Source: Naegleria gruberi
Taxonomy: Eukaryota
DNA: 64,000 bases
Reading direction: 5' to 3' (one strand)
Assembly (NCBI GenBank): GCA_000004985.1
Contig: GG738915.1
Made by a program: the position numbers and the translations under genes. The notes beneath the pieces were generated by a model. The model had not been told where the DNA came from and made no database searches. It saw only the letters and a program-made list of their open reading frames with translations. Below, piece by piece: positions 21,881-58,696 of the stretch. Within the stretch, counting starts at the first letter, position 1; every line of letters begins with the position of its first letter.

Positions 21881-21953
21881 CGCCCACCGTGGGGGTCGAA
21901 CCCACGACCACAAGGTTAAGAGCCTTGCGCTCTACCGACTGAGCTAGACGGGC
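21881..21953 (-). tRNA. tRNA-Lys (anticodon CUU)
   Basis: Reverse complement GCCCGTCTAGCTCAGTCGGTAGAGCGCAAGGCTCTTAACCTTGTGGTCGTGGGTTCGACCCCCACGGTGGGCG. Anticodon loop CTCTTAA. Terminator T-run downstream on the coding strand. Confidence 0.9.
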
Positions 21954-22123: not shown

Positions 22124-23572
22124 ATGCAAGACAATCCACCTTCAACAACCACACCGAAAGCGGAACCTGTTGAACAACAACAAGAGGAACAACCGGAGAC
22201 TGTTAGCATTGATGATAAAACAGTCTCAACATCAAATCAACAAGATATAACTAGGGATGAAGCTGCTTCATTGTATGATGATGTGTTATCATCGTCAAAT
22301 AATAATTCGAATGTTGAGAGTAATGTAACTGCAGAAGATGATTCGACAAATAATAATAATAATCAGGACAATGATCAAACAGGATCACTAGAAGGAGAAA
22401 AGGAACAACAAACAACACCTAGTACGAATAACTCTGTTGCGGATAGCAAGAATGAATCTAAAGAAAACACTAAGTCAAACAACACCACCGGCAAATATTA
22501 CAGCAATAATAATAATAACAGAGGCAACTTTAAAGGTGGAAGAGGATTCTATAATAATAACAACAATAGAGGATATTATAATAACAATAACAGAAATAAT
22601 TATAATAACAATAGCAGAGGAGGTTATAACAATAATAATAACAGAAATGGAGGTTATAACAACAATAGAGGAAACTACAATGATTACCAAGGCAATTCAT
22701 ACAACCAAGGCTCAAATGACCTCAAGAGAAATTATCAATCATACAACAATGGCAGTGGCAGTAGCAGTAGCAATAATAATAATAGAGGATATAACAATAA
22801 TAACAACTACAATGGTGAGCAATCGTACAATTATCAATCTTATGATAATAAGAGAAGAAGAGAAGATAACGCACCAGCTGCCACAAGTAGTACTACTGCG
22901 GATAACACTGAAAAACCATTGTCTGAAGTGAGAGGAGTAGCTGCTTTCTTATCAAAGGATTCACAAAATACTAGAAGTGGAGGAGATTTTAGAAACAACA
23001 ATTCAAAACAATATAATAATCAAGGAGGTTATCAAAATAAGCCATACAATAATAATCAAGGAAGTTATCAAAGTAATAACAATAATAGTACCAGCAATCA
23101 AGGATATAACAATAATCGTCCATACAATAATAATAATAATACCAACAACAACAAGACATATAACAACGATTATCAAAAGAACAGTGGCAACCAATTCCAA
23201 GATCGTTCAAACTGGGGAAATAGTGGAAATTCTTCTGATTTCCAACAAAGAAATTACCAATCACAATCATATGGTGGAGGATATAACAATACTAATAACA
23301 ATAATAGATATGAAAATGATTATAGAAAGGATGATGCTGATAGATCTAGAGGATATGATCAGCAGTATGGTGGCTATAAAAATGATTATAGAGTGGATTC
23401 AAATGTTCAAAGACAACAATACAACACACAACAATATCAAAATAATAATAATAATAATAATAATATTGAACCAGCTTTACCAAGTGGATGGAAGCAATAC
23501 TTTGATGATAAAACTGGTAAATATTATTATCATAATGAAAGAACGGACACAACACAATGGGAAAGACCATAA
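22124..23572 (+). CDS. Prion-like N/Y/G/R-rich low-complexity protein with C-terminal WW domain
   Basis: Long 'NNNNRGYYNNNNRNNYNNNSRGGYNN' tracts (RGG/YN repeats). C-terminal 'LPSGWKQYFDDKTGKYYYHNERTDTTQWERP' is a canonical WW domain. Confidence 0.7.
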   Translation: MQDNPPSTTTPKAEPVEQQQEEQPETVSIDDKTVSTSNQQDITRDEAASLYDDVLSSSNNNSNVESNVTAEDDSTNNNNNQDNDQTGSLEGEKEQQTTPSTNNSVADSKNESKENTKSNNTTGKYYSNNNNNRGNFKGGRGFYNNNNNRGYYNNNNRNNYNNNSRGGYNNNNNRNGGYNNNRGNYNDYQGNSYNQGSNDLKRNYQSYNNGSGSSSSNNNNRGYNNNNNYNGEQSYNYQSYDNKRRREDNAPAATSSTTADNTEKPLSEVRGVAAFLSKDSQNTRSGGDFRNNNSKQYNNQGGYQNKPYNNNQGSYQSNNNNSTSNQGYNNNRPYNNNNNTNNNKTYNNDYQKNSGNQFQDRSNWGNSGNSSDFQQRNYQSQSYGGGYNNTNNNNRYENDYRKDDADRSRGYDQQYGGYKNDYRVDSNVQRQQYNTQQYQNNNNNNNNIEPALPSGWKQYFDDKTGKYYYHNERTDTTQWERP

Positions 23573-24679: not shown

Positions 24680-27600
24680 TCAACAGTCGTTTAATAAACG
24701 TTCTTGATGTCTCTTGTTAAATTCAACATGGTCCAATAAGTGAGTGACAATATTTTGAGATTGTTGGGCTTCATAGTACAATGCTTCTTGGGGTGAGCTC
24801 TCTCTTTGAATATCTTGCTGTTCATCATGATCATCTGAGTATTCTTCGTCCATGAAAGATCTAGGGTGTGAAAAACTAAGACCTCTATTACTAAGTGTAT
24901 TATGTGAAATAGAGGAAGATCGACTATTGTAAAAGTCCTCCCTGGATGTGAATTTGGCAAGGACATTATTTTGGAAACGTTCAGCGTATGAAATTGGCTC
25001 CACACTACTGATACCATTTGGATCTTTTCTTAAAATCTTCGTTTTGATTAAAGTTTCCATCTTCTTATTCATGTCATAGAGCTGCAAAATATCAATTACA
25101 GAAGAGTACATGATGGCTGCTCTATTGTAAGGAGAATCCAAGTCTATAACTTGAATTCCTCCCTTATAAGTTTTGTGGAATGGCTCATAAAACTTAATCT
25201 CATTTGGTAAACTTTCCACACTAATAACAGCTGGGTCATCTTCAGCTAAACCTAGAAGGAGCGAATAATCCATAATCTTGAGAGATTTGAGAAAGTTGGA
25301 ATCAATAGTCAATTGTTGTTTGAATCTTTCATAAATTGCCTTATTTTCAAAAATTATTTTACGCTTTCTAGTAAAATCATTATCAAGTAATAACTTGTTT
25401 CTGTTTTGAACATGACTGGCATATGCATCCTCAGCATTGGATGTAGATTTGAATTTAAGAGTATTGGCATAACCATCAAAGGTAGGAAGGTTGTTTCTGT
25501 TAATCCAACTTCCTTTCAAGTCAAACTTGGTATAGACACTCATTGGATCATATTGTGCTCCACGATCCTTTGCTAATCTACAATTCAAAGCATTGTTAAT
25601 GACAATAAATTTGATTTTAAAGTTGGCTGTCATTTTCAATTCATAAATACCAAATATTTTCACAATAAATGTATCTCTAAATGTTGTGTAATGCTTGTAA
25701 AAGAATTGAATATTGTCCAATAGTAATTTCAATTCATCATCATTAATAGTCTTGATCATAAATTGAGAATCGTAAGTGAATAGGAAGAAACTACCTGACT
25801 TTCCTTCACTGAAATTATTTCTCACAGATTCCAACACTACAGAAGTTGGTTCAAAAGATCTCTTGTAAGATTCCATAATAGAATGAATATCTGCTGAACC
25901 AGTAAGATTATCAACAAAGTAGTAGCTTCTCAAGTGATGGAAAGCTGTTGGATAATACTCAGTGACACTAATCTTGTGTTTTGTAACAAGGTTGTAAAGT
26001 CCAGGATGTGTTTTGGATCTCAGAGATGGATGGAAGAGTTTCTTCATTAGTGGAGAACCGTACAGAGTATTTCTATGAGAGGTCAATTCAGATTCTGAAT
26101 AATTGAATTGTTTGATAATGTCTTCACATTCATGAGCTTGTTTCATACAGTGTTGAGTAGCCAACAAGACACAAAAAATCAAATCTCTTCTGACCATATA
26201 GTCAATGGCAACGTTTGAAAGAGAATCCTCAAAGAATTTTTGATCTTGTTGTGATAGATATTTCAAGAAACGTTCTTGGTCTGCTTCAGAACCCTCATCC
26301 ATAATACCTTCGAAGAGTAATCTTTGATGGTAAAGTGATTCCTTAGCTTTTTCAATGGCCATTCTTCTTCTAGAGAGAAGATCGAGTTCCTCATCCACAG
26401 CAACACCTTCCGCTAAAATGGAAGTATAGAGTGTTGAGCTTTTGATAACACCCTTCTTCTTGATTCTATCGAGAATATTTTGTCCCTCATCGTTTTCTGT
26501 AAGCATACAAAGAAAGTCCTTAAATTTCTTAATATGTCTCAAAATGATAGGATCTGAAAGTAAGATTAGTGACAAAATGAGACCTTCAATACTCGATACA
26601 ATAATTGAAATATTACGAGCAATAATTGTGAAAATAGTAATTCCAGCATCACTAAAGTCCTCCCCTTTTTGTTTCAATTCAGAAATCTTACCCTTCAAAA
26701 TAACACTTGAAAGTAAAGTTCCCAATAAAGAAATGCCAATAACACCACTGAAAATACATTGTCTAATAATGATACCATTTCTTAATTTTTGAGTACCTGG
26801 TAAACCTCTTCTCAAACTTGACCAAACATATAAACAAATACCAATACCTATAATGGCCATAATACCATTGATACCATAGATGGCATAACCAATATATAAT
26901 TCATCAGGAAGAATTGAACATGCCTGATTGTTTTGTGTTAGTGTACTCTCAACTACAGATCCTACAATTGCAAGAATGGTGAGTGTCCACATGCAAATAT
27001 GATACATGATGTGTTTTTTCTTATTTCCCTTGATGGGATTCGTAGCAACATTGAGTAAATCCAATACAATGCAAAATCCATAACAATATGAGCAAAAATT
27101 AAATCCATATTCGAATATAGCAACAACTATACACATGTTTGGTTCATAGATCGTCTCTGGAAAGTGTAAAATTAGCAATATGAGAAAGTGTTTCACGCAA
27201 CTGAGAGCTTCAGTGGCCAGAAAAGCCATAATGAGAGCAAAATTCTTTCTACCTCTCAATTCAGCAAGTCCAACAAAGGCCACCATCAATATGATACAAA
27301 AGCAAAAGCTTAATGCTGCAAACACCAATTCAAAATAGGAGCACACTCTTGCCAAGAGTGCTATCCTCATCATTAATAAATCCATGGTAGGATCAGTTGA
27401 ATTTGTTCCATTATTATTTGAAGAATTATCAAGTAATACCAAGTGTTCCATTGTTGTAAATTCATTTTTCCAAAATTCGTCAATTCCAATTTTAAAAGTT
27501 GCTGCACCTTTTCGAGAGTGAATGAATGAATCGTAATTATCATCATCCTGATGTTCCTCCTCCTCATGATCATCGTAATGAAAAGGCAGTGAATTAGAAG

Positions 27601-27964
27601 GGGTGGTAAATCGATCTCTAAACAGACTTGTCTTTAATTTGTTACTATACATTTGGTGAATAGAATTTTGATTTGATAAACTTGTATGATCCGGTGTTAA
27701 ATTATTGTTACTCGAAAGGCTAAGAGATGGTCGGATGATAACTACATGATGAAGAAATAATAAACATGAAAGGAGGAGAAGGAAAAGGACAATATACAAG
27801 GAGGTAGTCATGATTGTTGAAAAGGAACAGAATGATTTTGTTGATGAAGATGATGTACTAGTTATTCCGTCATTGCTATTCGCCTGTTGCTTTCCAGCAG
27901 CAACACTAACACAACAAGAAGAATCGGACTTGCTCGTTGTGAGTCTTGTTGGAGATGATGGCAT
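24680..27964 (-). CDS. GPCR-PIPK: 7TM receptor-like N-terminal region fused to a C-terminal phosphatidylinositol-phosphate kinase catalytic domain
   Basis: Multiple hydrophobic helices between residues ~200 and 480. The PIPK core is 'GKSGSFFLFTYDSQFMIKTI', 'IVKIFGIYELKM' and 'MDYSLLLGLAE'. Confidence 0.8.
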   Translation of the reverse strand: MPSSPTRLTTSKSDSSCCVSVAAGKQQANSNDGITSTSSSSTKSFCSFSTIMTTSLYIVLFLLLLSCLLFLHHVVIIRPSLSLSSNNNLTPDHTSLSNQNSIHQMYSNKLKTSLFRDRFTTPSNSLPFHYDDHEEEEHQDDDNYDSFIHSRKGAATFKIGIDEFWKNEFTTMEHLVLLDNSSNNNGTNSTDPTMDLLMMRIALLARVCSYFELVFAALSFCFCIILMVAFVGLAELRGRKNFALIMAFLATEALSCVKHFLILLILHFPETIYEPNMCIVVAIFEYGFNFCSYCYGFCIVLDLLNVATNPIKGNKKKHIMYHICMWTLTILAIVGSVVESTLTQNNQACSILPDELYIGYAIYGINGIMAIIGIGICLYVWSSLRRGLPGTQKLRNGIIIRQCIFSGVIGISLLGTLLSSVILKGKISELKQKGEDFSDAGITIFTIIARNISIIVSSIEGLILSLILLSDPIILRHIKKFKDFLCMLTENDEGQNILDRIKKKGVIKSSTLYTSILAEGVAVDEELDLLSRRRMAIEKAKESLYHQRLLFEGIMDEGSEADQERFLKYLSQQDQKFFEDSLSNVAIDYMVRRDLIFCVLLATQHCMKQAHECEDIIKQFNYSESELTSHRNTLYGSPLMKKLFHPSLRSKTHPGLYNLVTKHKISVTEYYPTAFHHLRSYYFVDNLTGSADIHSIMESYKRSFEPTSVVLESVRNNFSEGKSGSFFLFTYDSQFMIKTINDDELKLLLDNIQFFYKHYTTFRDTFIVKIFGIYELKMTANFKIKFIVINNALNCRLAKDRGAQYDPMSVYTKFDLKGSWINRNNLPTFDGYANTLKFKSTSNAEDAYASHVQNRNKLLLDNDFTRKRKIIFENKAIYERFKQQLTIDSNFLKSLKIMDYSLLLGLAEDDPAVISVESLPNEIKFYEPFHKTYKGGIQVIDLDSPYNRAAIMYSSVIDILQLYDMNKKMETLIKTKILRKDPNGISSVEPISYAERFQNNVLAKFTSREDFYNSRSSSISHNTLSNRGLSFSHPRSFMDEEYSDDHDEQQDIQRESSPQEALYYEAQQSQNIVTHLLDHVEFNKRHQERLLNDC

Positions 27965-28850: not shown

Positions 28851-28931
28851 CGCAGACTGCAGGATTCGAACCTACGAAGGTTTCCCCAACAGATTTCAAG
28901 TCTGTCGCCTTAACCACTCGGCCAAGTCTGC
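28851..28931 (-). tRNA. tRNA-Ser (anticodon UGA) with long variable arm
   Basis: Reverse complement GCAGACTTGGCCGAGTGGTTAAGGCGACAGACTTGAAATCTGTTGGGGAAACCTTCGTAGGTTCGAATCCTGCAGTCTGCG. Anticodon loop CTTGAAA. Variable arm 'TGGGGAAACCTTCGTA'. Confidence 0.9.
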
Positions 28932-29074
28932 TACATATATTTTCGCCATTTTTGCTTAAGGGCTCCACTACAATCACATGGATTAATTTTTTTGCTCATT
29001 TTGTTCTCTTTAGAATTTCCTTTTTCGGAGAGATATCATGAATACAACTGATAACTTTTTTGTTAACAATGTAT

Positions 29075-29147
29075 GCGCAAGTAGATCAGTGGTTAGATCG
29101 TCCGCCTCACACGCGGAAGGTCGCGGGTTCAAACCCCGCCTTGCGTA
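29075..29147 (+). tRNA. tRNA-Val (anticodon CAC)
   Basis: GCGCAAGTAGATCAGTGGTTAGATCGTCCGCCTCACACGCGGAAGGTCGCGGGTTCAAACCCCGCCTTGCGTA. Anticodon loop CTCACAC. Followed by 'aaaatttta' T-run. Confidence 0.9.
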
Positions 29148-29228
29148 AAATTTTATTGGGAAAAATCATTTTATTTTCAAGCATGTTTTTTGCTATTATT
29201 TTCCAATGCAAACAGTGTGAAAAGTTTA

Positions 29229-32200
29229 TTAGAGAACAAAGTTTAATGTGGAAACAACCAAAGCAATCATCAATACACCAACCATCTTCAAAGAATGAGA
29301 ATGTGAAATAATAGAAGCTCTTGGAACTTGTGGGCTTGAAAATCCACTCACTGAATTGGAGGCACCTGGCTGAACAGTAGTATCAGGTTCAACAGTTGGA
29401 TCTGCAGAAGGTCTTGTCTCTGTGGCAACATCAAAGAACAATGAGGAAACCTTAATTGGATCCTTGTCTGGACTTTCTGAAACACCACATGTAGAAACAG
29501 AGCCCCATTTCTTAATTTCACCTGATGTGATAAATCTGGAGGTTTCTTCTTGTCCCTGATCACCAATAAATCTTACATTATCCACAATCAAATCTCTGTA
29601 CGGACTTGTAGCAGTGATGGTACCAGAGAAATAGAAGGAAAATCTTTGGAATTGTTGAACTCCTGTAAAACTCAAGTCAGAGAGTGGAATTCTAACTCTT
29701 GTGAGACGAGTTTCATCAATCTTGTAGAATTGAGTATAGGTGCTGTTAGTTGTCAGAGTTTTGATTGTTGTAAATTGTTTGGTATTTGAATTGTAAGAAG
29801 CAAAGCTCATTGTCAATTCAAAAGAGCCACTGCTATTAGTTTCTCTCACAAAGAATTCGAAATACTTGTAAATGGAAGTATCAACAGCAAAAGAAGTGTA
29901 TCTGTACAATTGTAATCCACCTCTTCTGAAACTCATGTAGAATGATGAGCTTCCACATACTGGATTAATAGAGTAGGATGTATTCGAAACTACATAATCA
30001 CCACTACCTGAATTGGAATAGACTTGTGCAGTAAATCCAGTTGACTTGGAAGGATCTCCATCATTGTACAGATACAAGGCCTCTGACTCATTCTTTACAA
30101 CACAAGGTGAAGTAGTAATAACAAATGGTGGTAAATTACAAGTTCCACTACAATACAATTGGGCTCTCAAATGTCCCTTTGGATTTTCAGAACTTGAAAC
30201 CTTTACAAAAATTCTTCCTTTCAACAAGTCAACCCATTCACCATGAGATAATTGTAAACCAAATCTACTTTGAGAATATGGAGATGGAACATAGGAATAT
30301 GAAATAATTCTTTCAACAGAACCAACGGATCCAACACCCACTTCAACAAGAGTTGCCTTGTCATTCATATTATGATGCAGAATCAAATCTAACATCTTGT
30401 CATTGTAATTGAGAAAACCAAAAACTGTACCAACTGCACTACTCGATCCAGATGCTAGTGGAGTAATGGAATTTTGTTGACACATTTCCAATCGACCAAC
30501 AAATCTATCTTCCTTCAAGAAAACTCTGTAGGTTTCTCTTGGATTTTCTGGAAGACTTGGATTGGCAGTTCCACAATAATTATTTGGACAAGTGGCAGTG
30601 ATAACAATATCTTTAGAGTTACTCCATGAACCATAATCAACAAATCCATACCATTCCTTCTTATTATTTTTGGAATAGGTATTTTCAAATTTGATATACA
30701 AGTGACCAGTAGTAGAATTGAATATTATATTATGATAATATTCAGTTGGATAATTGACAACGTCTTGGAATGAATTGGACAATTTCAAAGTCTTTGGATC
30801 TGATGTAGAGGTTATAGAGAATTTAGAACCTTTTGGATATTGAATGACCATGACAACCCAATCGCCAGAAGCTGAAGATTGCATTTGTAAACTCATTGGG
30901 TTTGGAGGAGGAAGATCAAAAGCATATTTCATGGCATAGAAACCACGTGATGGAACATTGGATTGCATATAGAAAGTTCCACCAGAAGACATTCCACCAG
31001 CAGTACTTGTTTGGATGTTTCTAGTGAGGTCTGTAAGGTACATTCTTGGAATTCTTGTATTGTAGGAAATATATTCTGGATGGGAAATACCATATGGATC
31101 GATGATTACAGAACTAGTAATATTGTAATTCAAAGCTCTAAATTGAACGTAGGATTCACCAATAAATGGACAAACAGAGGCGTTGTTCCACTCTGATCTA
31201 ATTTCACAACCTTCAAAGTTTTGAATTGCATCATTACCACTAATCCATGCACCAGCAGCAACACCAGTGATCGATCCATCTATATCCATGAAAACAGCAC
31301 CCTTTCACAATATCTATTTCTGGTATGGAGCTTGAAATAATTGTCAAGATAGGACAATGCACCAGCTCTTCTATATTGATCAGTGACAAAGTTTCTAAAA
31401 GTCACATTTCTCAACAATTCAGCACCGCCGTTATCATAAGTTTCATAACCCTTAATGACCACAGTTGTTGAGGCATATAAATTTGGTCTTGTTCTATTTC
31501 CCTTATCAACATTTGGTCTCAAAGTATAGTCTCCAATATTATCCGATTCTCCAATCATGATTGAATCGGTAATGTATGAAGTACCAGGTGGAGAATTCAT
31601 CTGTCTCATATTATCAGTCAAGTACAAGTTTTTGAAAACGATATTTCCACAACGAGCCCAAATTCCATAATTTCTCAACTTGTAAGCTGTGAAATTATCA
31701 ATGAGAGCCTCAATAGATGGATAGTAACCAGCTTGTTCAGTTGTGCCATCAGCTTTTTCCATATCATCCATGAATAGTCCATTATGTCCACTGTGAGCTA
31801 CATTTCCTGAAAATGGTTTAGGTGGAGCAGTTCTTGGATTGATAGAACCTGGGGCGTACAATGAGGCACTGGCACCTGTTGGGAAAGTTGGCCTAAATAA
31901 GAATTAAAAACACTTAGGTGATCATGAATATTTTGTAAAAAACTTACATTCTAATAACAATTTGAAAATTAATCAAGTAATAAAGATGATAACTTACGTA
32001 AACCAATAGCAATGCTTTCCACCAACAGCATGATTATCAATGAATGAATTGTTTGGATTGGTAATCCAGAAAACAGCAACTTCACTATCAGATGGAATCA
32101 AACGATACGTCAAATCATAAACAGGTTTTGGACGAATTCCCAAATTATGCTTGAACACATTACCTAGTTCAGAACCATCCTCCAAAAAGTATTCATGACC

Positions 32201-33277
32201 AATAGCATTGAAACAGACATTATCTTCAAGAAGGAAATAATTAGTATCATGAACCACATAACATCTCTGGAATGAATCATGAACAGAACATCCCCTAATA
32301 TAGTATTGAGTGCCAAATGTTGAGTTTTGTGCAGTATTTTCCAGGAGGTGAAGATGGAATGAATATCTTCCCATCAAGCCATATTGACCAAACTTTCTAA
32401 TTTCAATTCCTTCAACTTGAAATTGAGTAACCAAACGAACCATGAAATGACCACCGAATTGTGAAACATCAGATGAGTTGTCACCTTGGAAGATAATTCT
32501 TCTGGAGAGTAAACCAACTTCAGGTCTAATTTCAGCACCATTGCTGTAGTGAGTATAATTGAGTGGAGAATCTAATACAATGGTTTTACCACCGTCTAAA
32601 ACTTGAGTAATGACACGTTCTTCGTTTTGATCAGGGAAGTAATTACCAATTTTCCAATTGACCAATGATGAGCTAACTAATCTATAATCATAAACTTCAC
32701 CATAATCTGATGAGGCAATAACAATAGAGTCGCCAACTCTCCATGATACGCTTTCCCTCAACTTGATTTGATTAGAACCTTTCTTTGCAGTTACAGCAAG
32801 ATCAGTAAAAGTTGGTGAGTCAACTTGACCAAAGATTTGAACCTTGGATCCAGATAAGAAACCAATACCCTTTGAACCCATGTTAACGTTATCAAAAGGA
32901 TCGATACCAATTTCACTTTCTGTAGTGCGAGAACCATAGAATGTCAAAATAATCTTGTTAGTAATTGGACATGTGGCACTTCCCATGATCCAGCTAGCAC
33001 CACTTTCAACTCGAATGTAATCTACATGCAAAGTTAAATTGGCATTATCGAAAATGAGAGAACCACCAGATAGTACAGTAATACTGCGAAGTTTGTAAGG
33101 AGGAGATTTATCAACCTTGACAGCTTTGTTAATAGTAATTTGACTGTTGGCAACTGAAAAACCAGACAAAGAACTGAACAAAGTAAGACCGCTTTCAGCA
33201 TGTGGACAATTGGTTTGACAACATGCTAAACATGCAAGTGCAAGAATAGTAACAACTAGTGTCAGTAATCTTGACAT
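29229..33277 (-). CDS. CEMIP/TMEM2-like secreted or type-I membrane protein (signal peptide, G8 domain, parallel beta-helix PbH1 repeats, GG-type domain, Ser/Thr-rich stalk, C-terminal TM anchor). Exons about complement(join(29229..31289,31290..31892,31998..33277)) with an unresolved frame change near 31290.
   Basis: Signal peptide 'MSRLLTLVVTILALACLACC'. Matches to human CEMIP/TMEM2: 'GDSIVIASSDYGEVYDY', 'EIRPEVGLLSRRIIFQG', 'NAIGHEYFLEDGSELGNVFKHN', 'VFWITNPNNSFIDN', 'FTAYKLRNYGIWARCGNI', 'FMDIDGSIT...CEIRSEWNNASVC'. The 105-nt intron 31893..31997 (GTAAGT/AG) joins 'KHCYWFT|PTFPTG'. The C-terminal 'MVGVLMIALVVSTLNFVL' is a TM or GPI-like tail. Confidence 0.75.
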
Positions 33278-43851: not shown

Positions 43852-45693
43852 ATGGAATCCTACTGGCTCGGACCTAATAATGAAGTCTCTCAAGTGCCTA
43901 CAAATAATGATTCATCCTCTCCTGTGAATGATGATGAGGATTTTAATAGTAATACAAGAAGTGAAGAAGTAACCTCTTCGGTGGCTACAAGTACAATCCT
44001 GATGGATAGACAACAAAACCAACAACATCATCATCATCATCAATCGAATAATCATCATAATCATGATTCACCTCAGAGTAATAATAATAACAATGATCAA
44101 AGAGAGGATATGATTTCGGAATCACCTACAAAATTTAATAGCTACTTGGATAATGTATTAAAATCGAGTTTCATGACCAATTTAATTGTGTCGTATTGGG
44201 ACAATAATATGGGTCCTCGACCTTTGAAAATTTGGAATGGAACAGTACCAAGAAGTGAAATTCTAACAGATGATACCCTCTTGTTTATTTCTAGATTTTC
44301 AATGATGGATGATATGCCAAGATATGAAGAAATTGGACCAAATATTGAAATTAAATTTAATATCATGTCGGATTTGAATGTAATGGTACTAACAGCTGTA
44401 TTTTGCAGTAAAAATTGGGAAAAGGGAACATCAAGGTCGTTCTTTAGGAGAAAGGTTGATCCTCCACCAACTTTATTTACAATCAGTATTGTAATGAATA
44501 GAGAAAATCTCTCCAAATTTATGGTCATTAATTTTATCATGAAGGAAAAACTCATTACACTTGCCAAGATTATGAAACACTTTGCTGATCAATATACCAA
44601 TTCGAATCAGAATGAAGTTATTTCAAATTTCGAGAACCATTTACATGAATTTGTACAATTATACGATTCTCTGAGTAGAATTGTTTATAGCCCGCCATCA
44701 ATGAATTTGTATACTACTTTATTCAGTGAAGAAATTTCACTGAAAAGACTCTATGAAAGTGAAGAGGAATCAATATTTCTCCAACGAGCAATATCATCAC
44801 ATTTAGAAACACATGGTTATAGTGTAGTGGTTGGCTTACCTAATCAATTGAGGGAAATCAATGTTTGGGTGAATACATTGGCCATGTTCCTTTCACAACA
44901 CGAGAAACAATTAATCAAACATGCCAAAAAGATTGAAGCTACAAAACTACCAACAGAAATTCAAACAGTTGTAAAAACTAGTTTCTTCAAGAGAGCCTCA
45001 GCACCAGTTAAAATGTTGGATCCTGAAAATCTATTCAAACCTGAAATATTTGTACAAGGTCTTGTAGTTACACCTGATGTTTCGCATTGGAAAGACTTGA
45101 TACCTACAAAATCACTACTATCTGGTAGATATCCAATATCAGTTATAGATTTAAAAGATAGAAAAGTATATTCCTTTAAAAAGTATCAGTATTTCCAAGC
45201 TTTTAAGCAGGAATTCTTTGAAGAATCCGAGTCAAAGAATATTCTCAATGATTTTGGAATTCAAAACACTGGTAACGACAAACAATTTAGAGATCACTAT
45301 GAAGAGGCTAGAAGAATTTGCACAAGTGTTCAAGAGCTGTTCTATGTCATTCTCAAAGTTATGCCCCTAACAATATATCCCTCTATGAGATATTCCCTCA
45401 TTTCTGAGTTTGTTCGGCTTCTTAATAGAAAGGCGTTGGCACTTGCAAAATACGTTCATTCAATGAGGAATGTGGAAATGATAGCGCCTGCCAAAATTCA
45501 AAAGGTTCTAGTGAAACATGTTATGATTAATAATAGTGTTCAGAAATACAGACCTGATGATTTGACTTCTGAATTAATGGCCATTACTGCTACAGCAGAG
45601 AAATTACAACACGGAGTTTATACAATAGTAACAGGAGATCCAAGACAAGAGGCAGAAGATGTTGTTAACTTTTTGGGGTCGACAAATTTCTAA
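43852..45693 (+). CDS. C9orf72: C9orf72 orthologue (DENN-like longin-domain GEF-complex subunit)
   Basis: 'LIVSYWDNNMGPRPLKIWNG' (human 'ATFAYWDNILGPRVRHIWAP'). 'LQRAISSHLETHGYSVVVGLPNQ' (human 'LLNAISSHLQTCGCSVVVGSSAE'). 'FVQGLVVTPD' (human 'FVQGLLKDST'). The N-terminus is low-complexity and His-rich. Confidence 0.7.
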   Translation: MESYWLGPNNEVSQVPTNNDSSSPVNDDEDFNSNTRSEEVTSSVATSTILMDRQQNQQHHHHHQSNNHHNHDSPQSNNNNNDQREDMISESPTKFNSYLDNVLKSSFMTNLIVSYWDNNMGPRPLKIWNGTVPRSEILTDDTLLFISRFSMMDDMPRYEEIGPNIEIKFNIMSDLNVMVLTAVFCSKNWEKGTSRSFFRRKVDPPPTLFTISIVMNRENLSKFMVINFIMKEKLITLAKIMKHFADQYTNSNQNEVISNFENHLHEFVQLYDSLSRIVYSPPSMNLYTTLFSEEISLKRLYESEEESIFLQRAISSHLETHGYSVVVGLPNQLREINVWVNTLAMFLSQHEKQLIKHAKKIEATKLPTEIQTVVKTSFFKRASAPVKMLDPENLFKPEIFVQGLVVTPDVSHWKDLIPTKSLLSGRYPISVIDLKDRKVYSFKKYQYFQAFKQEFFEESESKNILNDFGIQNTGNDKQFRDHYEEARRICTSVQELFYVILKVMPLTIYPSMRYSLISEFVRLLNRKALALAKYVHSMRNVEMIAPAKIQKVLVKHVMINNSVQKYRPDDLTSELMAITATAEKLQHGVYTIVTGDPRQEAEDVVNFLGSTNF

Positions 45694-45842
45694 TAGTTCC
45701 TTAATAAAAATACACGATTCTTCAAATAGCCTTTAACAGTGGAGAACCTTCTCATTTGTGAACAAAAGGACGATTGAGAAAAGATGGCAACCCACCATAC
45801 ACTAATATTCTATATTTCGTTCAATAAATATTTATTCAAAAT

Positions 45843-47055
45843 TTAGTTAAGCTTAACAATGTTAGCCTTCAAAGACTTGATGACATTCTTTGGTTCAGCA
45901 CTTGGACAGGCATGAACGAACTTACAGATCTTGGTTGGGGTAACAGCAAGAAGGAGTTTTTGAACAAGGACAGGTGTATAGGTATCAACCAAATTTTCAC
46001 AGGCTGGTCCGAAGGTGGATGGCAATTTAGCACAGACCTTGTCCAATTTGTCTTCAACAAACTTGTCAATTGATTGTTGATTGATTTCTCTTTGGACGAG
46101 TTCCATAGCCATAATACAAGCTGGACAGATGGCCAACTTCTTGATTTCAGAGGTCATGACTGGAGCAGCGAATTGCTTAGCAATGAAAGCTTGCTTGGAT
46201 GAACACAAGTGCAAACCAGAACAGATTTGAGATGGGGAGTTGTGATCTTCGAGCTTCTTGATAATGTATGGAACCATTCTAGCAATAGACAAACAAGTTT
46301 GAGTAAAGACAGATGGAATGTTTGAGCACAATTGGTTCAACTTCTTTTGGATTTCTTGTTGAGAGTGATTAGAGTTGATGAAGTTTTCAATTTGACCAAC
46401 AGCATACTTGCAGATTTCACATTCAGCATCACCAGCCTTAGCTTCAGCCTTTGGAGCTTCAACAACAGGGGTAGCAACTGGAGCTTCAACAGTAGAGTTC
46501 TTTGGGCAGAGTGGCAATTGATCAGTACAGACTCTGACTGGAGTTTCATAGGTAATCAAAGCATTCAACAATTCATGACCATAGACGAGAACAACAGTGT
46601 TACAGATCTTTCCGAATTGGTTATCACCCAATTGAGAACAGACACCGAGGAGGGCCTTTTCAATAGCTGTAATAACAACAACAAGATAATGATGATGAAT
46701 ATTTAACATTTAGAGTGTTAATAAATAACATACCTGGTTCTTCCTTGAGGGCAAGGGCTTCAACAGTTTGGACAGCATATTCACAGACGCTACAGAATTG
46801 GCTTGGAGCAGCAGTAGTGAATGAGAGGGAGGCTATAGTACCATAATATAACATATTTCATCAATGTCCACAAAAATTATTAAATAACGATCATCCAACA
46901 TCATTTCATCATATTCAAAAATAATAATCATCGTCATTATCGCATCATGATATGTATATTTAATAATATTAATATTCCCTTCTATTGATGATGATTAAAT
47001 ACTACATACCAACAATAGCCAACAAGACGGCAACAATAATGGTGGAGGTCTTCAT
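45843..47055 (-). CDS. Multi-saposin-domain precursor (signal peptide plus three SapB domains; prosaposin/naegleriapore-precursor-like). Exons complement(join(45843..46666,46734..46832,47010..47055)).
   Basis: Signal 'MKTSTIIVAVLLAIVG'. The three 6-Cys SapB units are 'CSVCEYAVQTVEAL...VCTDQLPLC', 'CEICKYAVGQIENF...ICSGLHLC' and 'CPACIMAMELVQRE...ICKFVHAC'. Introns are 177 nt and 67 nt (GTATGT donors). Confidence 0.8.
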
Positions 47056-47855: not shown

Positions 47856-48908
47856 ATGTCCCTCACAGCTACTTCTCATTATCAATTTGCCCACAATGAA
47901 TTTGTTGGCATGTCTCATTATCAAAAACTGTTGTACATTCAAAGCAGGAAGGTTGAGGCAAATCCACTCTTCTGCACCACTTGTCGAACTCAAGAATATG
48001 TCGTTGAGGATTATTCTCAAGGATGTATGGTTTGTAGGGGATGTGGTGTGGTTGTACAGAATCAGTTAATCAGTACAGATGAAGGTAAGTTGTAACATTA
48101 GTAACATTAATACGAAACATGATGTAAAGAACAAAGAAATTTCCAGAATGATGATGGTGTTGAAGACAAATCACGTACTTCAAAAGCCAATAGCAATGAG
48201 TTATTGGATGGGGATTTGGAGACATCTATTGCTAGAGTTCCTGGTCAATCAGGGCAACTTGTTAGAACACAAATGAAAATTAACGAAACAACAGAGAAAT
48301 CCGAATCAACTCTCAAAACAGCTTTTAGTGAAATTAGCAGATTTGTAGAATTAGTGGGAGCAACACCTAAAAGTGCATTCACAATTCAACAAATCTTCAA
48401 AGCACTTTACACATTTAAAAAGGTCAACTCTAAAAATTTGAAATCTTCAATCGGTGCATGTTTATACAAGGGATTGAAGATTGAAGGAAGTGCAATCACC
48501 ATTAAGGAAGTCTGCGTCCATGTCAAGGTTTCCGAAAAGAAATTGAATAGAATGGTAATGCAATTGGGTAAAATTGATTCTCTCAAAGAATTACTAGCTC
48601 AGGATACTCACTCTCCAAAATCATTCATTGAAACAATTGCTCAAAAGTTGAGTTTGCCAACCAAGATTCTCTCATTTGCTCTGGATATTTGTGAGAGAGC
48701 TCTTTCTAGTGGTGTCGATGCAGGAAAGAGTCCTTCAACTGTTGCAGCTGCTTGCATTGTGTTTGCTTCTCAAAATCACAAAGATCAGCAACATGTGAAA
48801 AGTGAGAAGGACGTCGAGGCCATTTCTGGAATAACTAGAGAAACAATCAGAAAGGCAGTCAAGGATTTTAACATGCACAAACAATCCCTATTGAAAATCA
48901 ATAAATAG
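47856..48908 (+). CDS. TFIIB: General transcription factor TFIIB (zinc ribbon plus two cyclin-like repeats). Exons join(47856..48084,48130..48908).
   Basis: Zn-ribbon 'CTTCRTQEYVVEDYSQGCMVCRGCGVVV'. A 45-nt intron (GTAAGT...taaag) gives 'STDEEQRNFQNDDG' (human 'GSEWRTFSNDKA'), then 'LLDGDLETSIARVPG' (human 'LLSDGDLSTMIGKGTG') and cyclin folds. The N-terminal extent upstream of the ribbon is uncertain. Confidence 0.8.
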
Positions 48909-49013: not shown

Positions 49014-51023
49014 ATGTTGAAAAGGACAAGGAACCTCGTTGCTGCCTCAAAGCAAGGACAACAATTACTATTGGCCACTCATAATTTATATGGATTTAAA
49101 AAGCCAACAACAACAACAACATGTTCATCGTCATCAGCACTTGTTGGTAATTTTAGTACAAATCGCTCTGCATTGTTTATTCATCCCGATGAATTAATTC
49201 CAACTAAAAAGCCAGTCAATAGATTTTCGAGAAAGTTTGTTCCATTCACTAGAAAATCAGCCAGTGAATATGAAGAAGACCAAACAATTGAAAGTCAGAA
49301 AGTATTAATTGAAGGAGGGTATATTAAACAAATTTCTTCGGGTGTCTATACATTCCTTCCACTGGGTACAAAAGTATTGGAAAGATTAACATTCATCATT
49401 GATAAATCATTACAGAAAATTGGATGCGAAAAGATTGTCATGCCATCATTAATTCAATCAGAGTTGTGGGAAGAAACAGGAAGATGGCAAACTGCTGGAA
49501 AGGAATTATTTAGATTATCGGATAGAAAGGACCATCAATTCTGTCTTGCTCCAACTCATGAGGAATGTGTTACAGATGTTGTTCGTTCTCTTGCATCAAG
49601 TTACAAACAAACTCCACTTAGACTCTATCAAATTGGTGTCAAGTTCAGAGATGAATTGAGACCAAGATATGGTTTGATGAGAGCAAAGGAATTTATTATG
49701 AAGGATTTATACTCTTTTGATATTGATAGAGAAAGAGCTTATCAATCCTATGACGAAGTTGTTGGAGCTTATAAGCAAATTTTCGATTTACTTGGACTTG
49801 ACTATGCCATGGTTGAGGCTGATACAGGAAATATTGGTGGTGACAAATCACATGAATTCCAAGTCTTGTCTGAGGTTGGTGAGGATTTTGTTTGTAGATG
49901 TAGTTGTGGAAAGAAATATTCTGCCAATATTGAAAAGGGTGAAGGTGTAGCTCCAGAAGTTTTTTCAAATGTTAATAATCGCGAATATTTCAAGGAAACT
50001 AAACCACTCTCGACCAATATTGATACATTGACATCATTGCTCGATGAATTAGCTCCAAATTATGATATTCACTTTGCTACATCAGAACCTGTAAAACACT
50101 TGCAAAGATCTAGAGTTGGCTACACTAGAACCATTATTGTTACTCAAAAGGGAGACACTGTAAATGAAATTAAGGTTAAGGATGCTGTTAAGAGTTTGGA
50201 AAAGACAGAAATTTCACTTGGACAAATTGTTCGTTATGCATCTGTTAAGGATACAATCAAACACAAGACAAGTGCTAGAGTCTTGATATTAATGGATTCT
50301 TCTGTTGAATCTTCAATTGTTGATAAATTGACAACAGGAGGTGATATTGAAGGTCAAAAGACATTCTTGAGATCTGTAAACCAAAATGATATTTGTATTA
50401 ATAATTCTTCAGAATGTAAGAACACTCCAATGATCATTAAGAAGGGTATTGAAATTGGTCACGTTTTCTACTTGGGTAAGAAATATAGTGAACCAATGAA
50501 GGTTTTCTTCTCTAGTGAACAAGGCAAGAGAGATGTTGCTGAGATGGGTTGTTATGGTATTGGTGTTTCTAGATTGCTCCAATCAGTCGCTGAAACACAC
50601 AAGACTGAGAAGGGTATCTGTTGGCCAATGTGTATTGCTCCAATTAGAGCTTACATGACTCCAATGGTACCAACTGCCAAGATGTTGCCAGATTTGACAC
50701 CTGAAGAATTTGAAAAGAAGAGACAACAAATTATTGAGGCTTCTGAGGAATTCTATCACAAATTGAATGCTGTCAGTGCTTTCAGAGGTGAAGTCCTTTT
50801 TGATGATAGATTGAAGGAAAGACCACCAGTCAAGCTCTATGATGGTGTCAAGTTTGGTTCTCCATACATTATTGTCATTGGCAAGGATTATTTGGAAAAT
50901 AGAACATTTGAAATTCAAGATAGAGCCAACAATGTAACGTTACACATGACTGAATCAGAAGCATTGGAATTCTTTGAAAAGGTCTCACAAGATTTTGAAA
51001 AGCAAATGTCTGTTCTCTATTAA
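49014..51023 (+). CDS. PARS2: Prolyl-tRNA synthetase, bacterial-type with INS editing domain and N-terminal organellar presequence (mitochondrial ProRS)
   Basis: Class II motif 2 'FRDELRPRYGLMRAKEFIMKD', an insertion domain between motifs 2 and 3, and the C-terminal anticodon-binding domain. The presequence is 'MLKRTRNLVAASKQ'. Confidence 0.85.
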   Translation: MLKRTRNLVAASKQGQQLLLATHNLYGFKKPTTTTTCSSSSALVGNFSTNRSALFIHPDELIPTKKPVNRFSRKFVPFTRKSASEYEEDQTIESQKVLIEGGYIKQISSGVYTFLPLGTKVLERLTFIIDKSLQKIGCEKIVMPSLIQSELWEETGRWQTAGKELFRLSDRKDHQFCLAPTHEECVTDVVRSLASSYKQTPLRLYQIGVKFRDELRPRYGLMRAKEFIMKDLYSFDIDRERAYQSYDEVVGAYKQIFDLLGLDYAMVEADTGNIGGDKSHEFQVLSEVGEDFVCRCSCGKKYSANIEKGEGVAPEVFSNVNNREYFKETKPLSTNIDTLTSLLDELAPNYDIHFATSEPVKHLQRSRVGYTRTIIVTQKGDTVNEIKVKDAVKSLEKTEISLGQIVRYASVKDTIKHKTSARVLILMDSSVESSIVDKLTTGGDIEGQKTFLRSVNQNDICINNSSECKNTPMIIKKGIEIGHVFYLGKKYSEPMKVFFSSEQGKRDVAEMGCYGIGVSRLLQSVAETHKTEKGICWPMCIAPIRAYMTPMVPTAKMLPDLTPEEFEKKRQQIIEASEEFYHKLNAVSAFRGEVLFDDRLKERPPVKLYDGVKFGSPYIIVIGKDYLENRTFEIQDRANNVTLHMTESEALEFFEKVSQDFEKQMSVLY

Positions 51024-51422: not shown

Positions 51423-53988
51423 TTAGAAATAGGCAAAGAAGAATGATATCACAATAATCAGATAGACTACTAACAAGCTGAAACCATGGAAATAATTGGA
51501 TTTACCATCAATGGTAACATAATTAAGAATGATTACAGCAAAGAAAATAGCTACCAAGTCCAATCTTGGGAATGTAAGAGAAAATACCTTTGTAATGTCT
51601 TCTTGGAAAATAATAGTACTGAAAATAACAAGAGCTGGAATTTGGATTAAAGCTGTTTGAATACCAGCAACATTACCAATTTCCAAAGATAATGTAACAT
51701 TATTTTGTAATGCAAACTATAAAATTTGTGGTGAGAATTACAACAGTATTGTTAAATTATACAAACCTTAATAGCACTGACAATTTCTGAAATATTTGGA
51801 ACGAGAGCGAAAATCGTAAGACCAGCAAACTCTAATGGAATACCCAGAGGTTCAAATGCTGGCTCTAGAGATTTTGTCATGGCTTCAGCGACAAAAGCAA
51901 ATGCTATTGTTGCAATGAGAAGAATGAGTACACAAACCCAACGAGGCCATTCAGCAGCACCGTGACCACCTGGAGTCTTTCCTGTACCATCATTATCTTC
52001 TTCATCAACCTTTGGAGCTCTGAGATAATACTTGTTGTGAGTCTTGAGTGAGAAAATCAAACCAACAAGATAGGCAAGTGGTAGAATTGCAGCTGTAGTT
52101 AAGGCTAATGGTTTTGCCTTATGTTGATAAATTGGATCTTTAGTAAAGTCCTTCTCTACATAGATGCAATTTTGACAGGCAAGATGGTATGGAACTGTTG
52201 TACCGTTTCCAGTATTATTTTGACCACCTGGGTAAGGGAGTGAAGCAGTGCCATTTGCAGTGTTATTGAAAAAGATAGCCAAATCTACACAACTGAGACA
52301 GGTTAATTCATAATCTGAATATATGTGTTAATAAAATGTTAAATTACTGGTCAACTTACTGCCATAAATTGTGTAGAATAATGAAGGAACAAAACAACCA
52401 ACGGTAGCGACAAGCAATAAAAGAGATGAGGTACCTGCAGCATGTTTGTTAAAATATTGAACTCTATGTTTGAAACCTCCAAATATCATACTAAGTCCAG
52501 GAATCAACAAAGTATCACCCAAAAATGATCCTGTAACGGCTTGCATGACAATCGCACTCATACCCTTGTAAAGAGTGGCAAAGTAAAGAATAATTTCAAC
52601 AACTGAACCGAAAGAAGCATTAAGGAAAGCACCCACAACATAGTTACTCTGTGCTGAAATAGAACTGACAGCCTTACTAATGTAATAACTCAATGGAATG
52701 ACAGCTAAAATACAAGTAACAAAAATTCCAACACCATATTCCTCAACAAATTCATCACTGAAAGCAAACCCTAAAACAATACTAAGTGGTACGAAAGGAA
52801 GCATGTTGAACAATAAAACATTAGCACCAAACAAGGAATACTTGTAATAGTAAAGATTGAAAGCTTGGTATGTACAGACCATGATATCACTTTCAACATT
52901 TGGTGGAAACTCGTCACTAACATGGAGCTCTAAAAAGCTCTTATATAAAAGCTTTAAACCATGGAACTGGACTTTGGTAGTGGGTATACCAAATACAGTA
53001 AGCCAAGAAAGTACACAGCATACGCAGTGCACAATAAATAAAATTGGAGCAGGGAAAATGCACCAAATCACCATACCAACAATTCTTAAAAACTTTTTAC
53101 CACCTGATTCTCTTGCATTCTCATCATAGTACACTTCTTCTGACTCATTTGGCATCAGTGAACTATTTTCAGAATTAACAGCATGGTTGTGAGGAACAAT
53201 TCGCTCAATATATTTACCAAATGGCCAGAAATAATAAAAAGCCATAGATAAACACTTATTTCCATATGGAATGCAAAATATTGTCAAATAACACAATAAG
53301 GCAACAAAGATATAACTCAAAAATAACCACCATCCCCAAAGTAATGAGTAAACAATATTTCCGAATGAAATCATTCTATTCTTTTCAGGTTTTTTCACTT
53401 GTTCTGGTTTAAGATCACCCACTTGTTCATACAAGGTTTTAACCTTTTCACTTCTTTCATTAATGTCTCTTACAGTTACGTGACCTATTCCGAGTGTCAC
53501 AAATAATAATGAATTTTTAACATACCTGCAAAAGGCATAATACCAAACATGGTATTCATAATGGATTTTTTAACTTCAATTTCATTTTCTCCATCAACAG
53601 TAATATCATCTTCGTTTTCATCTTGATCCTCAAATCTCAAAGAATATCTTTTTCTTCTCTTTAGTGAAGAAGATGAATTCAAAGCATGTTGAAAATCCTC
53701 ATGATATTCACTACTACTGTCCTTTCTATCAAATGATCGAATAATATCCCTCGATGAATCTCCATACGGCCCATAATCACCTTCCGATTCAATAGGTTCT
53801 TCCAAGGGTATATATCCCCGAGTGGTACTATTATTATTATTACTACTATTAACATCGCCTTGTTGTTGATATGAAGAGTGTTGTTGTTGTATGTGGTCAT
53901 CACCTCCATCACCACTAACAATATTCGGATGATTGCCTGCACCACTACTGTTACGTCGCCCTCCAGCACTCTCTTGATTTTGCCGCAT
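51423..53988 (-). CDS. CAX: CaCA-family Ca2+/H+ exchanger (CAX-like) with an N-terminal YccF/DUF307-like membrane segment and a long S/N/acidic cytosolic N-terminus. Exons complement(join(51423..51716,51767..52314,52360..53484,53526..53988)).
   Basis: Alpha-1 repeat 'GAFLNASFGSVVEIILYFATLYKG...VTGSFLGDTLLIPGLSMIFGG'. Alpha-2 repeat 'GLTIFALVPNISEIVSAIKFA'. Introns of 41, 45 and 50 nt (GTATGT, GTAAGT and GTTTGT donors) restore a continuous 809-aa frame. 'NIVYSLLWGWWLFLSYIFVALLCYLTIFCIPYG' is YccF-like. Confidence 0.75.
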
Positions 53989-57439: not shown

Positions 57440-58696
57440 ATGTCTAAACATTCTAGAGGAGGAATCCTTGATGGTCTTACTGATGAAGGATTCGTTGGAG
57501 AACAAGTTGAACATGTAGAGAAGAGGAGTGATGATCGGAGATCTTCATCTATGGTCAACTCGGAAGCAGAACCATCATCATCAAACAATACAGAAAATAC
57601 AAATCAGGAGGATGATGATTCCGGAAGAAAACAAATAGAGTGGATGTACAATAAAGATTATGATAAAGTGAATGAGGAAAGTTTGGAAGAATATTTAGTA
57701 GGAAAAAAGAGCATTGAAAAGTTGGTTCAGGGAGGAGATTTAGTGGATAATGATTATAAAATCATGCTGGAACAAAAGAAGGCTGGTGCATTGTTTTTAC
57801 ATAGCCACGAAAATAGACATCACTCTGGAGAAGCAATAATTGATGATCCGATGATTAAAATCAAACATGAATCACTTATGAGAATGAAAATGTATTTACA
57901 AAATCCAGAATTATTACAAAAAGAACTTGAAAAGAGAAAGAAGGAAAAGAAGGAAAAGAAAAAGAAGGAAAAAAAGGAAAAAAAGGAAAAGAAGAAGGAA
58001 AAGAAAGATAAGAAAGAGAAGAAGGAAAAAAAAGAAAAGAAAAAGGATAAAAAGAGAAAAGATTATTCAAGTGATAGTAGCTATACAAGTTATTCCAGCG
58101 ATGAACCAAAGGAAAAGAAGAAAAAGATAGAACCAAAAACTAAAGCTAGCTCTGAACCAAAAGAAACCCCTAAAACAAATCTATCAAATTCTGAAAAGGA
58201 ACCATCTAGCTCAACACACAAAGATGATAAATATAATAGAAACGATGATAAATATTATAGAGAAAGAGCGTATGACAGAAGAGATGATAGAAGAGACGAC
58301 AGAAGGTTCAATGACGATTATTATAGAGATGATAGAAATTATGATAGAGATTACAATAGAAGGGATTCATATCGTAACGAAAGATCTCGAGACAGATATT
58401 ATGATGACAGGAGGGATAGAAGTTATAATGAAAGAAAGTACAACGATAGAGATTATGAAAAAAGTAGAAAGAATGAAAATGTTTATGCCAAGGATGACTC
58501 ACAAAAGCAACTAGATCAAATGCTCAAAAATGGACAGCAAAGAGAACAGCAAAAACAAGAAAGCAAACTCAAATCACTTCAAGAAAAGGAAGAAATTCTC
58601 AATACTGCACCACAAGCCATCCACAATGAAAAGGCAACCTTTTTACAACAAACCAGAAAAGACACATACATGAATAAATCGTTCAACAAGCGGTAA
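57440..58696 (+). CDS. CWC25: CWC25-like pre-mRNA splicing factor (K/E- and RD-rich)
   Basis: 'RKQIEWMYNKDYDKVNEESLEEYLVGKKSIEK' (human CWC25 'KLDWMYQGPGGMVNRDEYLLGRPIDK'). 'DDPMIKIKHESLMRMKMYLQNPELLQKELEKRKKEKKEKKKK' (CWC25 'EDPLFIIRKKEEEKKREVLNNPVKMKKIKELL...KKEKKKK'). RD/RY-rich tail. Confidence 0.5.
   Translation: MSKHSRGGILDGLTDEGFVGEQVEHVEKRSDDRRSSSMVNSEAEPSSSNNTENTNQEDDDSGRKQIEWMYNKDYDKVNEESLEEYLVGKKSIEKLVQGGDLVDNDYKIMLEQKKAGALFLHSHENRHHSGEAIIDDPMIKIKHESLMRMKMYLQNPELLQKELEKRKKEKKEKKKKEKKEKKEKKKEKKDKKEKKEKKEKKKDKKRKDYSSDSSYTSYSSDEPKEKKKKIEPKTKASSEPKETPKTNLSNSEKEPSSSTHKDDKYNRNDDKYYRERAYDRRDDRRDDRRFNDDYYRDDRNYDRDYNRRDSYRNERSRDRYYDDRRDRSYNERKYNDRDYEKSRKNENVYAKDDSQKQLDQMLKNGQQREQQKQESKLKSLQEKEEILNTAPQAIHNEKATFLQQTRKDTYMNKSFNKR
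57925..58075. repeat. Imperfect (GAA/AAG)n purine-rich coding repeat encoding (KEKK)n
   Basis: 'aagaaggaaaagaaggaaaagaaaaagaaggaaaaaaaggaaaaaaagg...'. The antisense ORFs 57876..58136 and 57927..58130 are artefacts of this repeat. Confidence 0.6.

Follow-up and report, generated by a model that had tools for sequence, protein, structure and literature searches.

A 64,000-nucleotide (nt) stretch of the Naegleria gruberi genome (contig GG738915.1, assembly GCA_000004985.1; hereafter the window) is AT-rich, with a G+C content of about 34%, and carries at 45843-47055, on the minus strand, a gene whose product has three saposin-B domains. The gene is very probably the orthologue of the Naegleria fowleri naegleriapore A precursor gene, and encodes a secretory polyprotein of three saposin-fold domains. 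An original prediction, made from the window alone, had proposed here a signal peptide followed by three tandem six-cysteine saposin-B domains, and the ends of the interval that it gave coincide exactly with the stop codon (TAA, 45843-45845) and the start codon (ATG, 47053-47055).

Gene structure and domain organisation

The gene consists of three exons and two introns, both with GT-AG borders. Exon 1 (47010-47055) contains the start codon and the first 15 codons of the signal peptide plus one nucleotide, and is followed by intron 1 (46833-47009, 177 nt, GTATGT...TATAG, phase 1). Exon 2 (46734-46832) completes the signal peptide, where cleavage is predicted at TTA|APSQ, and continues into domain 1, of which it encodes the first half. 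Intron 2 (46667-46733, 67 nt, GTATGT...TTACAG, phase 1) interrupts domain 1, and exon 3 (45843-46666) encodes the remainder of this domain, linker 1, domain 2, linker 2, domain 3, the tail and the TAA codon. All these features lie on the minus strand, as does a candidate polyadenylation signal, an AATAAA hexamer read at 45831-45836, 6 nt past the stop codon. Joining the exons (47055-47010, 46832-46734 and 46666-45843) yields an open reading frame (ORF) of 969 nt and 322 amino acids, while the longest ORF without splicing is 288 amino acids (45843-46709) and starts within an intron. Both introns, which the original prediction did not mention, are required, since only splicing recovers the signal peptide together with the N-terminal half of domain 1.

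The translation of this splice model matches N. gruberi XP_002670487.1 / EFC37743.1 (NAEGRDRAFT_82816, UniProt D2VZR0) with 100% identity, so that the gene is already annotated in the public N. gruberi genome, under the names 'hypothetical protein' and 'Uncharacterized protein AM17'. An independent ENA assembly holds a near-identical ORF, one substitution apart. The label AM17 presumably refers to a phylogenetic-profile set of 'amoeboid-motility-associated' proteins.

As judged by heuristic inspection, the N-terminus (MKTSTIIVAVLLAIVASLSFTTA|APSQ) is a predicted signal peptide cleaved at TTA|AP. It has a hydrophobic core with a mean Kyte-Doolittle value of 2.71, and small residues occupy positions -3 and -1. 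The motif AAPS-x-FC, directly after the predicted cleavage site, is conserved in a five-sequence alignment, as are two other motifs at domain borders, AG-x-AEC and E-x-K-x-L.

The three domains of the original prediction were recovered by Pfam, where SapB_1 matched in three stretches (E 8.7e-24, 83.6 bits) and SapB_2 also in three (E 5.3e-20, 71.7 bits), against gathering cut-offs of 25.2 and 21 bits, respectively. The protein contains 18 cysteines in three groups, spaced 3/26/12/25/7, 3/28/11/24/6 and 3/28/11/25/6, and this pattern is no chance arrangement. All 18 align with cysteines of saposins A-D and of amoebapore A; the disulfide pairing itself is predicted. With SapB profiles, the six-cysteine pattern and a helical-bundle fold, the N. 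gruberi protein belongs to the SAPLIP superfamily.

Domain 1 (46506-46794, amino acids 29-102, from Cys1 to Cys6) is the one split by intron 2. It is followed by linker 1 (46422-46505, amino acids 103-130), 28 residues rich in A, P, V, E and K (PKNSTVEAPVATPVVEAPKAEAKAGDAE). The segment 'VEAPVATPVVEAPKAEAKA', which had been quoted as an A/P/E-rich linker, was found within it at amino acids 108-126, between domains 1 and 2. Domain 2 (46203-46421, amino acids 131-203) comes next. Linker 2 (46128-46202, amino acids 204-228) has 25 residues (SSKQAFIAKQFAAPVMTSEIKKLAI), domain 3 (45906-46127, amino acids 229-302) terminates in ...FVHAC, and a basic tail of 20 residues, PSAEPKNVIKSLKANIVKLN (45846-45905, amino acids 303-322), ends the protein. 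The domains are only 27-28% identical to one another, which suggests that their triplication is ancient.

Two N-glycosylation sequons, N105-S-T in linker 1 and N148-H-S in domain 2, are kept in four Naegleria-type sequences, and glycan attachment is predicted at both. In linker 1, the conserved features are this sequon and the AG-x-AE motif immediately ahead of domain 2. N148 shares its alignment column with the glycosylation site of saposins A-D. In the tail, K312, L314, K315, A316, V319, L321 and N322 are invariant across four species, giving a conserved end ...LKA..V.LN. A helix is predicted at 307-321 in the full-length model, with low confidence, and its hydrophobic moment (0.45) was not significant against shuffles.

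The domains differ in charge. Domain 1 has a net charge of -5 and an isoelectric point (pI) of 4.5, to be compared with -4 to -8 for human saposins. Domain 2, with three histidines and a pI of 7.8, goes from +1.2 at pH 7 to +4.3 at pH 5. Domain 3 (pI 6.7) goes from 0 to +1.7, practically as amoebapore A does (0 to +1.6).

The AlphaFold 2 model of domain 2 has five helices and a predicted local distance difference test score (pLDDT) of 92.7. It superposes on closed human saposin A with a template-modelling (TM) score of 0.83-0.85 and a root-mean-square deviation of 1.8 A, on saposin C with a TM score of 0.74-0.78, and on NK-lysin with 0.64; its input, a 15-sequence domain alignment, included mammalian saposins, which biases it toward saposins. 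The model indicates that domain 2 adopts the saposin fold. The full-length AlphaFold model (five-sequence alignment) was poor, with a pLDDT of 52.6, and was judged too poor for a fold search, yet it is helical in all three domains. Its low-confidence segments all lie in the signal peptide, linkers and loops; with a pLDDT below 50, linkers 1 and 2 are predicted to be disordered.

Orthology to the naegleriapore A precursor of N. fowleri

The best non-self match of the N. gruberi protein is a Naegleria lovaniensis protein with 65% identity. The 90%-identity cluster of this match includes N. fowleri FDP41_001319 and Q9BKM2 / AAK21658.1, the 'naegleriapore A pore-forming peptide precursor', an accession that reviews confirm to be naegleriapore A. 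Full-length identity to Q9BKM2 and FDP41_001319 is 65-66%, with colinear domains, linkers and tail. In the five-sequence alignment, colinearity extends from the region of signal-peptide cleavage through to the final residue, and no domain contains a gap. The N. fowleri precursor likewise has a signal peptide, three SapB domains with the same cysteine spacing, two linkers and a basic tail ending in LN. It also shares both sequons, neighbouring genes and the first two introns.

Introns 1 and 2 lie at the same codons and in the same phase in N. fowleri, where they are 215 and 95 nt long. The N. fowleri gene has two additional introns, in domain 2 and at the start of domain 3, both of which N. gruberi lacks. 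Synteny is found on the 3' side, where a convergent C9orf72-like neighbour is common to the N. fowleri contig VFQX01000023 (67% identity), and a TPR gene, an Rce1-like protease gene and a 1,030-amino-acid gene are also shared nearby. No second saposin gene or tandem paralogue was found within the 64-kb window. Together, the synteny, the intron positions and phases and the lack of a second saposin gene in the window argue for an orthologue rather than a look-alike or a paralogue. The original prediction had spoken of resemblance to naegleriapore precursors, and orthology is a stronger relationship than that; its reading of the domain architecture as a clue to lineage also held, N. gruberi being a heterolobosean.

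Identity to N. fowleri is 73, 77 and 70% in domains 1, 2 and 3, 59% in linker 1, 23% in linker 2 and 53% in the tail, so that linker 2 is nearly unrelated between the two species. The ratios of nonsynonymous to synonymous substitution rates (dN/dS) against N. fowleri were 0.12, 0.26 and 0.16 in domains 1, 2 and 3 and about 0.45 in the linkers (about 0.46 in linker 2); these Nei-Gojobori values are rough, as dS is near saturation. They indicate that purifying selection maintains all three domains, and that the linkers evolve fast and appear to behave as spacers. The two species also differ in charge, N. gruberi domains 2 and 3 being more basic at pH 7 (+1.2 and 0, versus -0.8 and -1.1 in N. fowleri), and the histidine of ...VHAC in domain 3 is replaced by aspartate in N. 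fowleri.

We also considered that the N. gruberi gene might be a decaying or unexpressed copy in a non-pathogenic species. Our search retrieved no N. gruberi expression data, which would fit such a copy. This explanation is nevertheless extremely improbable, given an intact frame with canonical splice sites and 18 of 18 cysteines, dN/dS far under 1 in every domain, and the ORF in the independent assembly.

Two further observations concern the orthologous sequences. Compared with the N. fowleri genome (VFQX01000023, 10243-10262), the cDNA-derived Q9BKM2, which opens with 'MITASLAV', has its ATGATAACAG in the last 10 nt of intron 1. The 5' end of this record therefore seems to be unspliced or partial, and the authentic N-terminal half of the signal peptide, MKVFILAVILAI, is missing from it. 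Environmental assemblies (ENA/JGI), and these alone, yielded a third Naegleria-type orthologue (P0010 / P0003), with 61-62% identity. Its domain 2 sequon is N-K-T instead of N-H-S, and the 354-amino-acid JGI call runs through intron 2.

The C9orf72-like neighbour (43852-45693, plus strand) is an intron-less gene of 613 amino acids (PF15019, E 4.7e-17), placed tail-to-tail with the saposin gene across a gap of about 150 nt. It puts a DENN-type, lysosome- and autophagy-linked protein beside a lysosomal saposin gene, a pairing that may be coincidence. On the other flank, a TFIIB-like gene (47856-48095 and 48204-48908, plus strand) lies upstream of the saposin gene and is divergent from it. Its zinc-ribbon exon (CTTC...CRGCG) precedes a TFIIB-repeat exon (E 1.4e-22). 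A mitochondrial carrier gene takes this side in N. fowleri, so that the synteny is confined to the 3' side.

The remainder of the window contains several other recognizable features. In an 870-amino-acid ORF (11088-13700, plus strand), a CHASE4 domain (E 1e-8) occurs together with an RGS domain at the C-terminus (E 1e-13); CHASE4 is a sensory domain otherwise typical of prokaryotes, and such a receptor-like combination is unusual in a eukaryote. Pfam matches identified a Polo-like kinase (1619-4081, plus strand), a PIP5K (24680-27964, minus strand), a protein with G8 and CEMIP beta-helix domains (31994-33277, minus strand), a class II aminoacyl-tRNA synthetase (49014-51023, plus strand) and a YccF and Na/Ca-exchanger membrane protein (52328-53500, minus strand). 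The tRNA genes are Lys-TTT (1281-1353), Lys-CTT (21881-21953) and Ser-TGA (28851-28931), all on the minus strand, and Val-CAC (29074-29148, plus strand), which is divergent from Ser-TGA and about 140 nt apart from it. Imperfect coding tandem repeats occur at 22550-22672 and 23013-23087 (Asn/Gly-rich, in a WW-domain ORF at 22124-23572) and at 57929-58063 (a Lys/Glu-rich AAG/GAA tract in a CWC25-like ORF).

Comparison with saposins and other pore-forming proteins

The domains were compared with PDB sequences by phmmer. The top saposin-family match for domains 1, 2 and 3 was human saposin C (E 3e-5, 6e-11 and 2e-11), whereas amoebapore A gave no match, 4e-3 and 5e-2, respectively. NK-lysin, granulysin and caenopore-5 scored 0.4 or worse. 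The original prediction had proposed that a better alignment to lysosomal prosaposin would speak against pore-forming peptides, and the domains do favour human saposin C over amoebapore A. This preference does not refute the prediction, since the genuine N. fowleri precursor, used as a control, ranks likewise (saposin C 1.4e-10, amoebapore A absent). In a second control, the best non-self saposin-fold match of amoebapore A was also saposin C. As the N. fowleri precursor and amoebapore A both favour saposin C, this type of alignment is uninformative as to saposin or pore-former.

An exhaustive representative search returned 1,805 relatives at E <= 1e-3. Beyond Naegleria, the nearest are multi-saposin proteins of about 25-38% identity. 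Twenty of the best representatives were looked up by name. They include animal prosaposins (mollusc, sea urchin) and proteins of the protists Heterolobosea sp. BB2, Heterostelium, Mastigella, Anaeramoeba and Mantamonas, the remainder being unnamed metagenome or assembly proteins; naegleriapore B was not among these 20. By its sequence, then, the naegleriapore A precursor is Naegleria's prosaposin-like protein, and N. fowleri genome papers do name the gene 'prosaposin'.

This raises the possibility that the protein is primarily an amoeba prosaposin, whose released domains would be lysosomal lipid-transfer or activator proteins for the digestion of prey membranes, pore formation being an in vitro side activity. 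Its published name agrees with this, as do the best named matches outside Naegleria, which are animal prosaposins or 'proactivator polypeptide' and diverse protist multi-saposin proteins, and saposin C as the best match of all domains. Further points in its favour are the position of N148-H-S in the glycosylation column of saposins A-D, followed by a similar (E/Q)(E/Q)EI motif, a proline before Cys5 that is common to saposins and absent from amoebapore A, and the strongly acidic, saposin-like domain 1. However, the purified product of the N. fowleri orthologue is a peptide that forms pores and is cytotoxic and antibacterial; domains 2 and 3, unlike saposins, are non-acidic; and the SapA (PF02199) domains of the prosaposin matches are missing. 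We regard this explanation, the main rival, as rather unlikely, though least so for the acidic domain 1; moreover, lipid-activator and pore roles may coexist and are not mutually exclusive.

Compared with vertebrate prosaposin, the N. gruberi protein is alike in being a multi-SapB polyprotein on a secretory/lysosomal route. Each of its domains is 30-38% identical to saposin C, the domain 2 sequon is in the canonical saposin position, and the domain 2 model reaches TM scores of 0.74-0.85 to closed saposin A/C. Vertebrate prosaposin has four SapB domains with flanking SapA domains, whereas the N. gruberi protein has three SapB domains and no PF02199 match. Vertebrate saposins are acidic (pI about 4.3-4.6) and each bears a sequon after helix 1, whereas in N. 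gruberi acidity is confined to domain 1 and a sequon in this column to domain 2. Prosaposin is a hydrolase activator, while the product of the N. fowleri orthologue is a membrane-permeabilising toxin. The N. gruberi protein is thus not a vertebrate-type prosaposin.

Neither is it an amoebapore. Amoebapore A of Entamoeba histolytica (PDB 1OF9) shares the saposin fold, six cysteines spaced 3/27/11/25/6, and a near-neutral charge that turns positive at pH 5, as in domains 2 and 3. It also has a histidine two residues ahead of the last cysteine, but saposin C has it too, so that this residue is not diagnostic. Its global identity to the N. gruberi domains is only 19-25%, and amoebapores have one SAPLIP domain per precursor against three in N. 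gruberi; both the several domains and the weak similarity set the protein apart. The literature likewise sets naegleriapores against amoebapores on their multipeptide precursor architecture. The resemblance originally proposed to both groups of precursors thus stands for naegleriapore A and fails for the amoebapores, which are not multipeptide precursors.

The Apl precursors of Dictyostelium discoideum (AplE, AplK) also have a signal peptide, several SapB domains and linkers, although they have two domains and belong to a different lineage. Recombinant single Apl domains form pores, with a preference for acidic pH and anionic lipids. A dictyostelid multi-saposin protein (P0137) was among the remote relatives, with 34% identity over the matched stretches.

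Proposed processing and function

In N. fowleri, naegleriapore A was purified as a pore-forming peptide cytotoxic to bacterial and mammalian cells. It is listed in the predicted secretome of this species, and it is the only product cited from its precursor, being described as a small precursor-derived peptide. Naegleriapores are reported to be glycosylated and are stored in granular vesicles. Given the conserved sequons N105 and N148, the mature glycopeptide should correspond either to domain 2 or to domain 1 plus a C-terminal extension. Mature naegleriapore A most likely corresponds to domain 2.

From the orthology, the N. fowleri literature, SAPLIP biology and the pH-dependent charge of domains 2 and 3, we infer the following course of processing and pore formation in N. 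gruberi. The signal peptide would bring the precursor co-translationally into the endoplasmic reticulum, where three disulfides would form per domain and N105 and N148 would be glycosylated. The precursor would then be routed to acidic granules or phagolysosomes, and proteases would cut the exposed, disordered linkers to release peptides of about 80-100 residues. At low pH, protonation of histidines would give domain 2, and more weakly domain 3, a positive charge, and both domains would bind and then permeabilise the anionic membranes of ingested bacteria. This acid-enhanced step matches the behaviour of the Dictyostelium Apl domains and the reports on the N. fowleri peptide. In N. gruberi, which is a non-pathogenic bacterivore, the role would be the killing and digestion of prey, not virulence.

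Several observations weigh against this proposal. By sequence, all domains are nearer to lysosomal saposins than to amoebapore, NK-lysin or caenopore, and domain 1 equals true saposins in acidity. Only for the naegleriapore B precursor is it documented that one precursor gives rise to several peptides, and accession-based literature searches found no experiment on the N. gruberi protein. A search for amphipathic helices, suggested as a check by the original prediction, gave a weak result: only 3 of 14 helices had a hydrophobic moment above that of shuffles, namely the first helix in each of domains 1 and 2 and the second helix in domain 2. This analysis is non-discriminating and was not used as evidence.

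The original prediction also suggested a look for conserved processing motifs, and none emerged: apart from the domain-flanking residues, no conserved dibasic or other recognizable protease site was found in the linkers. The protein might therefore work intact or only partly processed, with the linkers as flexible spacers instead of cleavage sites, an explanation that agrees with the 23% conservation of linker 2 and with the restriction of documented multipeptide processing to the B precursor. On the other hand, the literature presents mature naegleriapore A as a small peptide that comes from a precursor. The linkers combine predicted disorder with faster evolution than in the domains, as would be expected of excised or exposed spacers, and AAPS-x-FC, AG-x-AEC and E-x-K-x-L are conserved beside the domains. 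An intact or partly processed protein is accordingly judged quite improbable, and the A/P/E-rich linker 1 is a plausible processing site.

The gene and its family are known and ordinary for the genus, and naegleriapore genes have already been reported in N. gruberi and N. lovaniensis. A useful outcome is that the entry 'hypothetical protein / AM17' can be relabelled as the orthologue of the naegleriapore A precursor, with little significance beyond annotation. The contrast in charge among the three domains leads to a testable hypothesis, that of a division of labour within one saposin polyprotein. One precursor would give divergent saposin-fold products, with domain 1 as a lipid-mobilising or activator protein, or as an intramolecular neutralising partner, and domains 2 (His-rich) and 3 (neutral) as acid-activated pore formers. 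We consider this hypothesis unlikely as it stands; if true, the naegleriapore A gene would be Naegleria's true prosaposin, a living intermediate between the lipid-activator saposins of lysosomes and SAPLIPs that form antimicrobial pores.

N. gruberi, a non-pathogenic relative, thus retains a putative virulence factor of N. fowleri that is conserved, syntenic and under purifying selection. This conservation in N. gruberi agrees with published work, according to which mere possession of this gene is not what pathogenicity depends on.

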